Notes: a model not told the origin generated them from the letters alone. 64,000 bases of DNA from Escherichia coli (GCF_044324785.1 NZ_CP172127.1); one strand, 5' to 3'. Shown: positions 53,536 through 57,465, counted from the stretch's first letter. Translations and numbers: made by a program.

Positions 53536-54543
53536 ATGTCTCAACTCAATGATAGTGACATCATCCTTTTTGAGTATAATTTTCATTATCAAAATATAAG
53601 ATCTAAAAATACTCTTGATATAGCATTTGGTATTGACAGAAATTTTCTTTTTGGATGTGGTGTAGCCATTGCATCTATTCTATTAAACAATAGCGAAATC
53701 TCTTGTGAATTTCATGTTTTCACAGATTATATCAGTGATAAAGACAAGTTATATTTTTCCGATTTAGCAAAACAATATAATTCAAGAATTAATATTTATG
53801 TTATCAATTGTGATAAGCTGAAGTCATTACCAAGCACGAAAAACTGGACTTACGCAACATATTTTCGATTTATAATTGCAGATTATTTCTATAATAAACA
53901 TGAAAAAATACTATATCTTGATGCAGATATTGCTTGCAAGGGTAGTATTAAAGAACTCTTAGATTATCAATTTTCTACTAATGAAATTGCCGCAGTTGTA
54001 GCTGAAAGAGATATTGAATGGTGGCAGAATCGAGCCTCGGTATTAACTACACCACAATTAGGTTCTGGATATTTCAATGCTGGTTTTTTGCTGATAAATA
54101 TTGATGAGTGGAATCTAAATAACATTTCGTCAAAAGCTATTGAAATGCTGCGTGACCCAGATTGGGTAAGTAAAATCACCCACCTTGATCAAGATGTACT
54201 GAATGTATTATTGAATGGTAAAGTGAAGTTTGTTTCGGGGAAATATAATACCCGATATAGTATTAACTATGAATTAAAAGACAAAGTTGATAATCCAGTT
54301 AATGATGACACCGTGTTTATACACTATGTGGGACCTACAAAACCCTGGCATGAGTGGGCTGATTATCCGGTGTCACGTAGTTTTTTGATCGCCAAAGCAG
54401 CTTCTCCGTGGTGTAAAGAAGATTTACTTAAACCTGTGAATAGCAATCAGTATCGGTATTGTGCAAAACATAAATTTAAACAAAAGCATTATATTGCAGG
54501 CATTTTTAATTATTTAAAGTATTATAAAGAAAAATGCTTCTAA
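53536..54543 (+). CDS. GT8-family LPS alpha-1,3-glucosyltransferase (WaaI/WaaO-like)
   Basis: 335-aa ORF with GT8 segments DIAFGIDRNF, LYLDADI, YFNAGFLLIN, IHYVGPTKPW; AT-rich. Confidence 0.65.
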   Translation: MSQLNDSDIILFEYNFHYQNIRSKNTLDIAFGIDRNFLFGCGVAIASILLNNSEISCEFHVFTDYISDKDKLYFSDLAKQYNSRINIYVINCDKLKSLPSTKNWTYATYFRFIIADYFYNKHEKILYLDADIACKGSIKELLDYQFSTNEIAAVVAERDIEWWQNRASVLTTPQLGSGYFNAGFLLINIDEWNLNNISSKAIEMLRDPDWVSKITHLDQDVLNVLLNGKVKFVSGKYNTRYSINYELKDKVDNPVNDDTVFIHYVGPTKPWHEWADYPVSRSFLIAKAASPWCKEDLLKPVNSNQYRYCAKHKFKQKHYIAGIFNYLKYYKEKCF

Positions 54544-54568
54544 AGATTTAAGGTTAAAATAATTCAAT

Positions 54569-55276
54569 ATGATATATAATAAAACGATAAATGGGTTGAA
54601 AGTTTTCATAAAAGATAATGATCCCTTTTATGAGCAAGTTCTGAATGACTTTTTAACTTGCAGGGTTAAAACATTAAAAGTTTTTCGTTCTATTGATGAT
54701 ACTAAAGTCATTCTTATTGACACTGCTCGTGGACCTCTTGTACTTAAAGTTTATGCGCCAAAGCATAAAATGATCGAACGTTTCTTAAAATCTTGCATAA
54801 AAAAAGATTATTATGAAAATTTAATTTATCAAACCGATCGGGTACGTGGTGAAGGCATTCAATCAATTAATGACTATTTTTTGCTTGCTGAACGTAAAAC
54901 ATTAAATTTCGCGCATTATTATATTATGCTCATTGAGTATATTGAAGGTGTCGGGTTAAATGAGTATTTGGAAATTTCTGAAGAACTGAAGGATCAATTA
55001 TCAGAATCGATAAAAGAGTTGCATCAGCATGGAATGGTGTCTGGCGATCCTCATAAAGGAAATTTTATAGTATCTGAAAAAGGTTTAAGACTAATTGACC
55101 TTTCAGGTAAAAAAACAACCGCAGTTTTAAAAGCAAAAGATCGCATTGATCTTGAACGGCACTATAATATAAAAAATGAATTGAAAGACTTTGGCTATAC
55201 ATATCTTATATTCAAAAAGAAAATTAAAAAAGCAATCAGGGATGTAAAAGTCAAACTAGGCTTGAAGAGCAAATAA
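54569..55276 (+). CDS. waaY: LPS core heptose(II) kinase
   Basis: 235-aa ORF resembling WaaY (…KVFRSIDDTKVILIDT…YIMLIEYIEG…HQHGMVSGDPHKGNF); AT-rich. Confidence 0.7.
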   Translation: MIYNKTINGLKVFIKDNDPFYEQVLNDFLTCRVKTLKVFRSIDDTKVILIDTARGPLVLKVYAPKHKMIERFLKSCIKKDYYENLIYQTDRVRGEGIQSINDYFLLAERKTLNFAHYYIMLIEYIEGVGLNEYLEISEELKDQLSESIKELHQHGMVSGDPHKGNFIVSEKGLRLIDLSGKKTTAVLKAKDRIDLERHYNIKNELKDFGYTYLIFKKKIKKAIRDVKVKLGLKSK

Positions 55277-55300
55277 TGATTATGATGAAGGGTAATTAAA

Positions 55301-56314
55301 TTGGATTTTAAACATCTTACTCAATTTAAAGATATAATTGAACTGGACAAGCGCCCCGTTAAACTTGATGAACGGGAAACGTTTAATGTCTCATGGGGTA
55401 TTGATGAGAACTACCAGGTTGGGGCTGCGATTTCAATTGCTTCAATTCTTGAAAATAATAAACAAAACAAATTTACCTTTCACATAATCGCTGATTACTT
55501 AGACAAAGAGTATATTGAATTATTATCACAATTAGCAACGAAGTATCGAACAGTAATTAAATTATATCATATTGATTCTGAGCCATTGAAGGCGCTACCT
55601 CAATCAAATATCTGGCCAGTATCTATTTATTATCGTTTGCTTTCATTTGATTATTTTTCTGCGCGATTGGATTCATTATTATATCTTGATGCTGATATCG
55701 TCTGTAAGGGTTCATTGAACGAGTTAATAGCATTAGAGTTTAAAGATGAATATGGGGCTGTGGTAATTGATGTAGATGCTATGCAAAGTAAAAGCGCTGA
55801 GCGTTTATGTAATGAGGATTTTAACGGTAGCTATTTTAACTCTGGTGTAATGTATATTAATTTACGGGAATGGTTACAACAAAGACTAACGGAGAAATTC
55901 TTTGATCTATTATCAGATGAGTCAATTATCAAAAAATTAAAGTATCCGGATCAAGATATTTTAAACTTAATGTTTTTACATCATGCTAAAATATTACCGA
56001 GAAAATATAATTGTATTTATACTATAAAGTCAGAATTTGAAGAAAAAAATAGTGAATATTACACCCAGTTTATTAATGATGAAACTGTCTTCATACATTA
56101 TACTGGTGTAACTAAGCCATGGCATGATTGGGCGGACTACGCATCTGCAGATTATTTTCGTAATATTTATAATATATCTCCATGGAGAAACATACCTTAT
56201 AAAAAAGCTGTTAAAAAACATGAGTACAAAGAAAAATATAAACACTTGCTTTACCAGAAAAAATTTCTCGATGGTGTTTTTACAGCAATTAAATATAATG
56301 TTATGAAAGGTTAA
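55301..56314 (+). CDS. GT8-family LPS alpha-glycosyltransferase (WaaJ-like)
   Basis: 337-aa ORF (TTG start) with GT8 segments FNVSWGIDENY, LYLDADIVCKG, YFNSGVMYIN, IHYTGVTKPW. Confidence 0.6.
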   Translation: MDFKHLTQFKDIIELDKRPVKLDERETFNVSWGIDENYQVGAAISIASILENNKQNKFTFHIIADYLDKEYIELLSQLATKYRTVIKLYHIDSEPLKALPQSNIWPVSIYYRLLSFDYFSARLDSLLYLDADIVCKGSLNELIALEFKDEYGAVVIDVDAMQSKSAERLCNEDFNGSYFNSGVMYINLREWLQQRLTEKFFDLLSDESIIKKLKYPDQDILNLMFLHHAKILPRKYNCIYTIKSEFEEKNSEYYTQFINDETVFIHYTGVTKPWHDWADYASADYFRNIYNISPWRNIPYKKAVKKHEYKEKYKHLLYQKKFLDGVFTAIKYNVMKG

Positions 56315-56322
56315 TATTCGAG

Positions 56323-57465
56323 ATGGTTGATAAAATAATATTTACAGTTACTCCTATTTTTTCAATTCCTCCTCGCGGAGCGGCCGCTGTTGAAACGTGG
56401 ATGTATCAGGTTGCTCAGCGTACCAATTTCCCAAATCGTATTGTTTGTATCAAGAATCCAGGATACTCAAATTACACCTTTGTTAATGATAATTGTAGTA
56501 TTCATAGGGTTGGATTCAGTCGCATATATAAGCGGTTATTTCAAAAATGGACAAGACTTGATCCTCTTCCATATTCACAGAGAATATTGAATATTGCCCA
56601 TGATTTTCCTATAACGAAAGAAAGTGTTATTGTAGTTCATAATAGCATGAAGCTATACACTCAAATTCGTAAGCGAGCTCCTCAGGCAAGAGTGGTTATT
56701 CATATGCATAATGCATTTGAACCAAAATTGCTTGAGCAAAATGTTAAAATGATAGTGCCTAGTTTATACTTGAAAAAGTATTACCAATCTTATTTAGCAA
56801 ATGCAGATATTGAGATTGTACCAAATGGAATTGATTTAGAAACCTATCAATCTACTTTTCAGCCGATCACTAGAAGCGAACTTAATATCTCCCCTGAAGA
56901 GAAAATTATTTTTTATGCTGGGCGTATCGTCCCTGATAAAGGCATATTACTGTTGATGCAATCATTCGAAAAATTGGCCGCTGCTCACAAAAATTTAAAA
57001 TTAGTTGTGATTGGTGATTATACAGAAATGAGTAAAAGTGACAAAGGTGCATATCAACACAATGTCAGGGAAATTGCAAAACGTTTGAAGGATCGTTGCA
57101 TTATGTTAGGAAGCATACCGCCTGAAAAGATGCATTGTTATTACCCACTGGCAGATTTAGTCATCATTCCTTCCCAGTTCCAGGAACCATTTTGCATGGT
57201 GGCAATTGAAGCTATGGGGGCTGGTAAGCCTGTTTTAGTGAGTACGCGTGGGGGGATGACGGAATTTGTCAAAGAAAATACTACGGGATTCCATTTAAAA
57301 GAACCTATGACTGCAGACTCTATAAGCAGCGATATTTTAAAAACGTTAGCGAATCCTGAATTAACAGCAGTTGCAAAGCAAGGTCAGGATTTTGTGTTTG
57401 ATCACTACAGTTGGGATGGCGTAACTCAAAGATTTGAAGAGGTCATTCATAATTGGTTTGAATAA
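56323..57465 (+). CDS. GT4-like LPS outer-core glycosyltransferase (WaaD/WaaK-like)
   Basis: 380-aa ORF with retaining-GT C-terminal region (EPFCMVAIEAMGAGKPVLVSTRGGMTEFV); last gene before convergent waaL. Confidence 0.55.
   Translation: MVDKIIFTVTPIFSIPPRGAAAVETWMYQVAQRTNFPNRIVCIKNPGYSNYTFVNDNCSIHRVGFSRIYKRLFQKWTRLDPLPYSQRILNIAHDFPITKESVIVVHNSMKLYTQIRKRAPQARVVIHMHNAFEPKLLEQNVKMIVPSLYLKKYYQSYLANADIEIVPNGIDLETYQSTFQPITRSELNISPEEKIIFYAGRIVPDKGILLLMQSFEKLAAAHKNLKLVVIGDYTEMSKSDKGAYQHNVREIAKRLKDRCIMLGSIPPEKMHCYYPLADLVIIPSQFQEPFCMVAIEAMGAGKPVLVSTRGGMTEFVKENTTGFHLKEPMTADSISSDILKTLANPELTAVAKQGQDFVFDHYSWDGVTQRFEEVIHNWFE

Follow-up and report, generated by a model that had tools for sequence, protein, structure and literature searches.

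Which outer core of lipopolysaccharide (LPS) is encoded by the chromosomal waa (rfa) locus of this Escherichia coli strain? We addressed the question for positions 53536–57465 of a 64,000-nucleotide stretch of its genome (NZ_CP172127.1, assembly GCF_044324785.1), hereafter the window, in which a first-pass annotation had recognized a non-K-12 outer-core gene set. That annotation counted just four genes in the interval from waaP to a convergent waaL, predicted to encode a family 8 glycosyltransferase (GT8), a WaaY kinase, another GT8 and a GT4-like protein, and took their order for the R3 pattern, waaI-waaY-waaJ-waaD. The gene content is upheld by Pfam, NCBIfam and the list of open reading frames (ORFs) for 46–64 kb. 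Four intact plus-strand ORFs, and no more, fill the interval in the order GT8, WaaY kinase, GT8, GT4, with waaP on the 5' side and waaL on the opposite strand beyond. The genes and the two primer sites used in typing are as follows.

53536–54543, plus strand: waaI (named waaO by PGAP), 335 amino acids, GT8; predicted UDP-galactose:(glucosyl)LPS alpha-1,3-galactosyltransferase, placing galactose I (Gal I) onto glucose I (Glc I)
54569–55276, plus strand: waaY, 235 amino acids, LPS core heptose II kinase; an inner-core modification gene inside the outer-core block
55301–56314, plus strand: waaJ, 337 amino acids, TTG start, the second GT8
56323–57465, plus strand: waaD (R3), 380 amino acids, GT4
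57501–58709, minus strand: waaL, 402 amino acids, R3-type O-antigen ligase
55385–55407, plus strand: site of primer R3-R, in waaJ, exact match
56386–56405, minus strand: site of primer R3-F, in waaD, exact match

The outer-core type is R3

Core-type PCR was run in silico with the nine LPSTyper primers for R1, R2, R3, R4 and K-12 (PMC13293308, Table 2). The R3 pair alone has sites in the window, with 0 mismatches and a product of 1,021 bp, which is the published size. The other seven primers have no site in the window at up to 4 mismatches. All control loci were typed correctly: MG1655 as K-12 (1,442 bp), E. coli C and GN05064 as R1 (842 bp), MB31 as R2 (610 bp), ApSLC23 as R4 (380 bp), and both 042 and O157:H7 AC-3 as R3 (1,021 bp). 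As a separate observation, the K-12-like waa locus of Ecol_276 (NZ_CP018953.1) gives no product with exact LPSTyper primers.

The window proteins were also compared by blastp with annotated waa loci of the five core types from complete RefSeq genomes. WaaI is 98.8% identical to its counterpart in 042 and 97.6% to that of O157, and its best match in another type is R2 WaaO (58%). The corresponding values are 99.4% and 98.2% for WaaJ (44% to WaaT of R1/R4), 99.5% and 99.2% for WaaD (56.7% to R2 WaaK), and 98.7% and 98.3% for WaaY (52–58% to WaaY of the other types). WaaL follows the same pattern, at 98.8% (042) and 98.0% (O157) compared with 51.5% for R2 WaaL, and has no blastp match at E<=1e-3 to WaaL of K-12, R1 or R4. 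At the nucleotide level, 48.5–63.0 kb of the window forms a single uninterrupted alignment to both R3 loci over 14.4 kb, at 98.6% identity to 042 and 98.3% to O157. The gene order, waaQ-G-P-I-Y-J-D with a convergent waaL joined to waaC-F-rfaD, is the same in 042 and O157:H7. Primers, protein identity and collinearity all indicate R3, and the alignment to reference loci gave 97.6–99.5% identity to R3 and no more than 58% to K-12, R1, R2 or R4. Since no best match to another core type was seen, the locus is R3.

The other core types differ from the window in content and layout as well as in sequence. In K-12 (MG1655), seven genes (waaS-B-O-J-Y-Z-U) separate waaP from waaL; here there are four, the block contains no homologue of WaaS, WaaB, WaaZ or WaaU, and the K-12 primers find no site. 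R1 and R4 have three GT8 genes, as the first-pass annotation had stated in setting them and K-12 apart from this locus, plus waaY and a GT2 or GT25 gene (waaO-T-Y-W with waaV, GT2, or waaX, GT25). The window instead has two GT8 genes and one GT4, its waaL is convergent rather than co-directional with the waaQ operon, and the R1 and R4 primers also lack sites. R2, including Salmonella-like loci, provides the nearest non-R3 relatives of the window GT4 and ligase and shares the convergent waaL. However, it has eight genes between waaP and waaL, among them waaB, waaZ and an extra GT8 that are absent here, and its primers, whose target is waaK+waaZ, have no site. K-12, R1 and R4 share with the window the inner-core genes, the operon architecture and an AT-rich outer-core block, whereas their best protein identity to its four genes is 39–58%.

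Could the locus nevertheless be a hybrid, or otherwise non-canonical, with R3 glycosyltransferases beside a ligase or other genes of a different core type? Hybrid waa loci do exist, K-12/R2 hybrids having been described in 2025 (PMC13293308), and the window WaaQ and WaaG are marginally nearer to R1/R4 references than to 042. However, R1, R3 and R4 share one waaQGP lineage anyway, and the ligase is clearly of R3 type, at no more than 51.5% identity to WaaL of any other type. The alignment with both R3 loci runs through 48.5–63.0 kb as one gap-free block, and no gene within 53494–58817 matches a non-R3 type better. A hybrid is thus excluded at the sequence level, and we consider it vanishingly improbable.

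Comparison with characterized R3 loci supports the gene calls. The O157:H7 locus (waaQGPIYJD, convergent waaL) is identical to the window in gene content, order, orientation and gene lengths, with proteins at 97.6–99.2%, nucleotides at 98.3% over 14.4 kb and no rearrangement; it differs by 3–8 amino-acid substitutions per outer-core protein. The locus of 042 (enteroaggregative, phylogroup D, NC_017626.1) is among the closest annotated ones, at 99.1% for the four-gene block and 98.6% across 14.4 kb. Its WaaP is 100% identical, its WaaI, WaaY, WaaJ and WaaD are 98.7–99.5% identical, and it differs by point substitutions only, with rfaD at 95.9%. In Shigella flexneri 2457T (serotype 2a, R3-type core), the 30-nt arms of the primers used to delete waaI, waaJ and waaD (PMC3184986) match the ends of the window ORFs with 0, 0, 0, 0, 1 and 2 mismatches: the waaI arms have 0 mismatches at both gene ends, the two waaD arms have 1–2, and O157 is exact at all six. 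The deletion-primer arms for waaD of the R3 prototype also fall at window ORF ends, with 0–2 mismatches across all arms. The positions of these arms tie the window ORFs to genes that were mutated experimentally and support the TTG start of waaJ, which the window and O157 have in common.

Domain and motif content agrees with these assignments. WaaI scores 614.7 bits against NF011718 ("lipopolysaccharide 3-alpha-galactosyltransferase"; cut-off 461), 248 bits against PF01501 and 76 bits against PF08437. WaaJ scores 215 and 49 bits with the same Pfam models and 295.8 bits with NF011718, under the cut-off of 461, and its orthologues in 042 and O157 are named UDP-glucose--(galactosyl) LPS alpha1,2-glucosyltransferase by PGAP. 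Both proteins combine the GT8 domain and the GT8 C-terminal domain with intact DXD and HxxGxxKPW motifs (DAD at 129–131 and HYVGPTKPW at 263 in WaaI; DAD at 130 and HYTGVTKPW in WaaJ). WaaY matches NF007684 (387.5 bits) and PF06176 (310.7 bits) and retains the catalytic loop D160-x4-N165. WaaD matches the subfamily-level model NF012028 (767 bits) and PF00534 (120 bits), and has the Glycos_transf_1 domain and EX7E motif (E288-x7-E296) of a GT4 enzyme. WaaL matches NF012031 (RfaL, 690.8 bits) and PF04932.

Extent and history of the cassette

The type-specific unit is larger than 53536–57465, a span that covers its four-gene part only. When 48501–63000 was compared by blastn with six reference loci, similarity to the R1/R4 loci ended exactly at the waaP stop codon (53493) and resumed at 58818. 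These limits define the full unit:

53494–58817: core-type-specific AT-rich cassette of 5,324 bp, GC 0.333, comprising waaI-Y-J-D, waaL and the 3' end of waaC

The R3-specific part of waaC is its final ~37 codons (58706–58817), and R3 WaaC has 330 amino acids compared with 318–326 in the other types.

Does this cassette record a recent lateral acquisition by the strain? The first-pass annotation had noted that the block and waaL are markedly AT-rich and had read this as a sign of lateral exchange. The composition is borne out, with GC of 0.326 in the four-gene block, 0.355 in waaL and 0.486 in the whole window; per 500 bp, GC is 0.28–0.39 across 53.5–59.0 kb and about 0.47–0.55 on either side. 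The inference from it applies to every core type and does not demonstrate a recent transfer. The outer-core block has a GC of 0.333 in K-12, 0.353 in R1, 0.354 in R2, 0.347 in R4 and 0.332 in O157 R3. AT-richness thus does not distinguish the five core types, and low GC belongs to the locus rather than to any event in this strain.

A recent acquisition would fit the drop from 0.48–0.53 in the flanks to 0.333 and the abrupt limits of the cassette, which fall at the stop codon of waaP and within waaC. R3 also occurs in more than one phylogroup (A, B1, D and E; PMC13293308), implying exchange between lineages at some time. Against this stand the low GC shared by all types (0.333–0.354) and the divergence of the genes themselves. 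Per-gene nucleotide identity to other R3 loci is 98.1–99.6% within the cassette and 97.6–99.4% in the flanking waaA/Q/G/P/F and htrL; since the two have diverged alike, cassette and flanks look equally old. A search at the cassette flanks found no mobility gene, integrase, repeat or insertion sequence (IS) element bounding the cassette. We therefore consider a recent acquisition unlikely. The sharp junctions and the occurrence of R3 across phylogroups fit a cassette exchanged over evolutionary time through homologous recombination between conserved flanks, the textbook view of outer-core regions. AT-richness supports an old foreign origin, or general cassette-like exchange of outer-core regions, and not a recent transfer in this strain.

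Predicted expression and core assembly

The cassette lies within a larger operon and its convergent neighbor, for which we identified the following features.

50436–50474, plus strand: JUMPstart element in the waaQ operon leader (Rfam RF01707, 55.2 bits against a gathering score of 35)
50463–50474, plus strand: ops motif GGCGGTAGCGTG, an exact match within JUMPstart, upstream of waaQ
50524–53493, plus strand: waaQ-waaG-waaP, the conserved 5' part of the operon, for heptosyltransferase III (waaQ, 50524–51582), glucosyltransferase I, which adds Glc I (waaG, 51579–52703), and heptose I kinase (waaP, 52687/52696–53493)
57468–57494, both strands: predicted bidirectional intrinsic-terminator hairpin, lying where waaD and waaL converge with 35 bp between their stop codons
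58706–61690, minus strand: waaC-waaF-rfaD(gmhD), the conserved heptose operon joined by waaL (NCBIfam RfaC and RfaF)

JUMPstart/ops is the loading site of RfaH and lets transcription traverse a long AT-rich operon. We predict that the waaQ operon is transcribed from upstream of this element and that RfaH would carry RNA polymerase across the AT-rich genes to the hairpin after waaD. The terminator scan found a stem of 12 pairs followed by a T run, with T runs after the stem on both strands; the predicted folding energy is -12.4 kcal/mol (z -3.4) on the plus strand and -16.4 kcal/mol (z -5.2) on the minus strand. A scan for promoter-like sites inside the block gave 29, compared with 29.8 expected from shuffled sequence, and we claim no internal promoter. 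The first genes of the operon are well supported by NCBIfam (RfaQ 710 bits, RfaP 481 bits), and the waaG product is a GT4. By blastp, WaaQ, WaaG and WaaP are 97–100% identical to their counterparts in R1, R3 and R4 loci (97–99% for R1/R4), and 72%, 90% and 84% identical, respectively, to those of K-12 and R2.

The roles assigned to the enzymes rest on near-identity to studied orthologues and on the literature and established pathway knowledge. WaaG would place Glc I onto the inner core, lipid A-Kdo2-Hep3 (Kdo, 3-deoxy-D-manno-octulosonic acid; Hep, heptose). WaaI, as a retaining GT8 with a DXD motif, would then add galactose in alpha-1,3 linkage, and WaaJ would add Glc II in alpha-1,2 linkage. 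WaaD, with its EX7E motif, is predicted to add Glc III in alpha-1,2 linkage onto Glc II. WaaY probably phosphorylates heptose II, following phosphorylation of heptose I by WaaP. WaaL would ligate undecaprenyl-PP-linked O antigen to Glc II. The alpha-1,3-linked N-acetylglucosamine (GlcNAc) branch on galactose would come from WabB, whose gene lies outside the waa locus.

Kaniuk et al. (2004, J Biol Chem 279:31237) are said to have characterized WaaJ and WaaD of the O157:H7 R3 core, with WaaD a glucosyltransferase. The same study reportedly found that WabB adds the R3 alpha-1,3-GlcNAc branch, with wabB located on pO157 in O157:H7. The R3 oligosaccharide is given as Glc(a1-2)Glc(a1-2)[GlcNAc(a1-3)]Gal(a1-3)Glc- (PMC12323348, PMC9927288), that is, an outer core of Glc I-Gal I-Glc II-Glc III plus GlcNAc, with the O antigen on Glc II (PMC12323348). 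WaaJ is described as adding the HexIII glucose and WaaD its glucose substituent (PMC9927288). The enzyme roles in PMC9927288 and PMC12323348 both rest on Kaniuk et al. 2004. In S. flexneri, wabB lies on the virulence plasmid, within a pgdA-wabB-virK-msbB2 operon (PMC4267944, citing Kaniuk et al. 2004).

We found no second WaaD/WaaK-like gene by tblastn in the 64-kb window, a result that is uninformative on wabB itself, which is plasmid-borne in S. flexneri. Taken alone, the window is predicted to encode the R3 backbone and does not account for the GlcNAc branch. As an observation in its own right, plasmids of E. albertii, E. coli and E. fergusonii (about 50–112 kb) carry a WaaK/WaaD-like "lipopolysaccharide N-acetylglucosaminyltransferase" ~60% identical to the window WaaD. 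The gene often adjoins one for a DapH/GlmU-like acetyltransferase, and these plasmid genes may be LPS-core modifiers.

Several points limit this account of the pathway. The first is a conflict over waaD: PGAP and NCBIfam call the GT4 "lipopolysaccharide N-acetylglucosaminyltransferase" by homology to WaaK, and the GlcNAc residue has been assigned to WaaD in S. flexneri (PMC3184986). WaaK transfers GlcNAc, whereas R3 WaaD is described as transferring glucose, a donor that we take from the literature. Second, the core structure of this strain is one that we infer from its genes. Third, each protein differs by 2–8 mostly conservative amino-acid substitutions from O157 and 042. Finally, the best identity found anywhere in 5,426 complete E. 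coli genomes is ~99.2% for the R3 block, 99.0% for waaG-waaP and 98.3% for the first 25 kb of the window. A further use of the name is simply an error: the target of the R3 primer, "waaD", has been described as ADP-heptose 6-epimerase (PMC13293308), which is a confusion with gmhD/rfaD, as the primer actually lies in the GT4 gene.

Two departures from a working R3 core were weighed. First, the locus could be R3 by sequence yet functionally degraded, so that the core is truncated or rough, as happens in some lineages kept in the laboratory or adapted to a host. In favor of this, no complete E. coli genome matches the strain closely, and IS2 and an integrated element lie within the window, a picture also seen in some lineages with decaying genomes; waa pseudogenes also occur, for example the waaO of the E. 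coli C record, which has an internal stop. The genes themselves argue otherwise: no stop codon interrupts any of the ten waa ORFs, which all have their full length, the catalytic motifs are intact, and the few substitutions relative to O157 and 042 are mostly conservative. We regard degradation as highly improbable. Second, the lineage, unrepresented among the 5,426 complete genomes, could make a variant R3 core, either lacking the GlcNAc branch if it has no wabB, or altered by substitutions in WaaI, WaaJ or WaaD that shift acceptor or donor specificity. We consider such a variant improbable; were specificity altered, phages and antibodies would meet a slightly different epitope.

The preferred interpretation remains that this is the chromosomal waa locus of an E. 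coli lineage with the R3 cassette waaI-waaY-waaJ-waaD and a matching R3 waaL, working as proposed. We place its probability at roughly 97%. The R3 genotype itself is confirmed, with no evidence contradicting it.

Neighboring genes, distribution and significance

Sequences on either side of the cassette show variation of their own. The rfaD/gmhD gene (60758–61690) has 95.9–97.2% nucleotide identity to all five reference loci, compared with 98–99% for waaF and htrL, and this unusually diverged allele is possibly a recombination patch. Beside it lies a second small AT-rich gene, htrL/yibB (61979–62851, GC 0.37), which the K-12 locus and both R3 loci (042 and O157) carry. In the R1 (E. coli C, GN05064), R2 (MB31) and R4 (ApSLC23) loci this gene is missing and kbl comes directly after rfaD. 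The margin of the waa region is thus polymorphic for the presence of htrL as well.

Upstream, an insertion of ~1.3 kb (42261–43560) separates pyrE from slmA, genes that are 36 bp apart in three reference loci. Its ORF (42546–43517, plus strand) encodes a 323-amino-acid retron reverse transcriptase (PADLOC RT_Ec107-like, 438 bits; NCBIfam retron St85-family RT, 227 bits). The position is what we take to be the classic retron Ec107 site. No msr/msd RNA scored above the Rfam gathering threshold at the retron.

An integrated element of about 18500–39800 adjoins yicC. It includes an integrase-like gene (38405–39742, minus strand), a C4 antisense RNA (35072–35159, minus strand), an isrK small RNA (35222–35299, minus strand) and an IS2 TnpB gene (21642–22547, minus strand). 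C4 antisense RNA and isrK are typical of P4-like satellites and phage immunity regions. The element also carries a row of minus-strand genes (24473–32653; products of 701, 473, 225, 153 and 919 amino acids) with no NCBIfam or PADLOC match, possibly uncharacterized defense cargo.

The R3 block is widespread. By megablast at 100% coverage and 95–99.2% identity, 1,363 of the 5,426 complete E. coli genomes (25%) contain all four genes, always on the chromosome and in a single copy. For comparison, 1,832 genomes contain the R1 block and about 690 others have an R4-like partial match. R3 has been reported as the second commonest type after R1 and as present in 97.9% of enterohaemorrhagic E. coli (EHEC) (PMC13293308). 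The gene set is well known and fully catalogued, and its enzymes and distribution have already been described.

Recognition of a rough or incompletely capped E. coli surface by antibodies, phages and protist predators depends on core type, as does the position at which O antigen is attached. This strain shares R3 with O157:H7 and most EHEC, and knowing this adds useful metadata on the strain rather than new biology.

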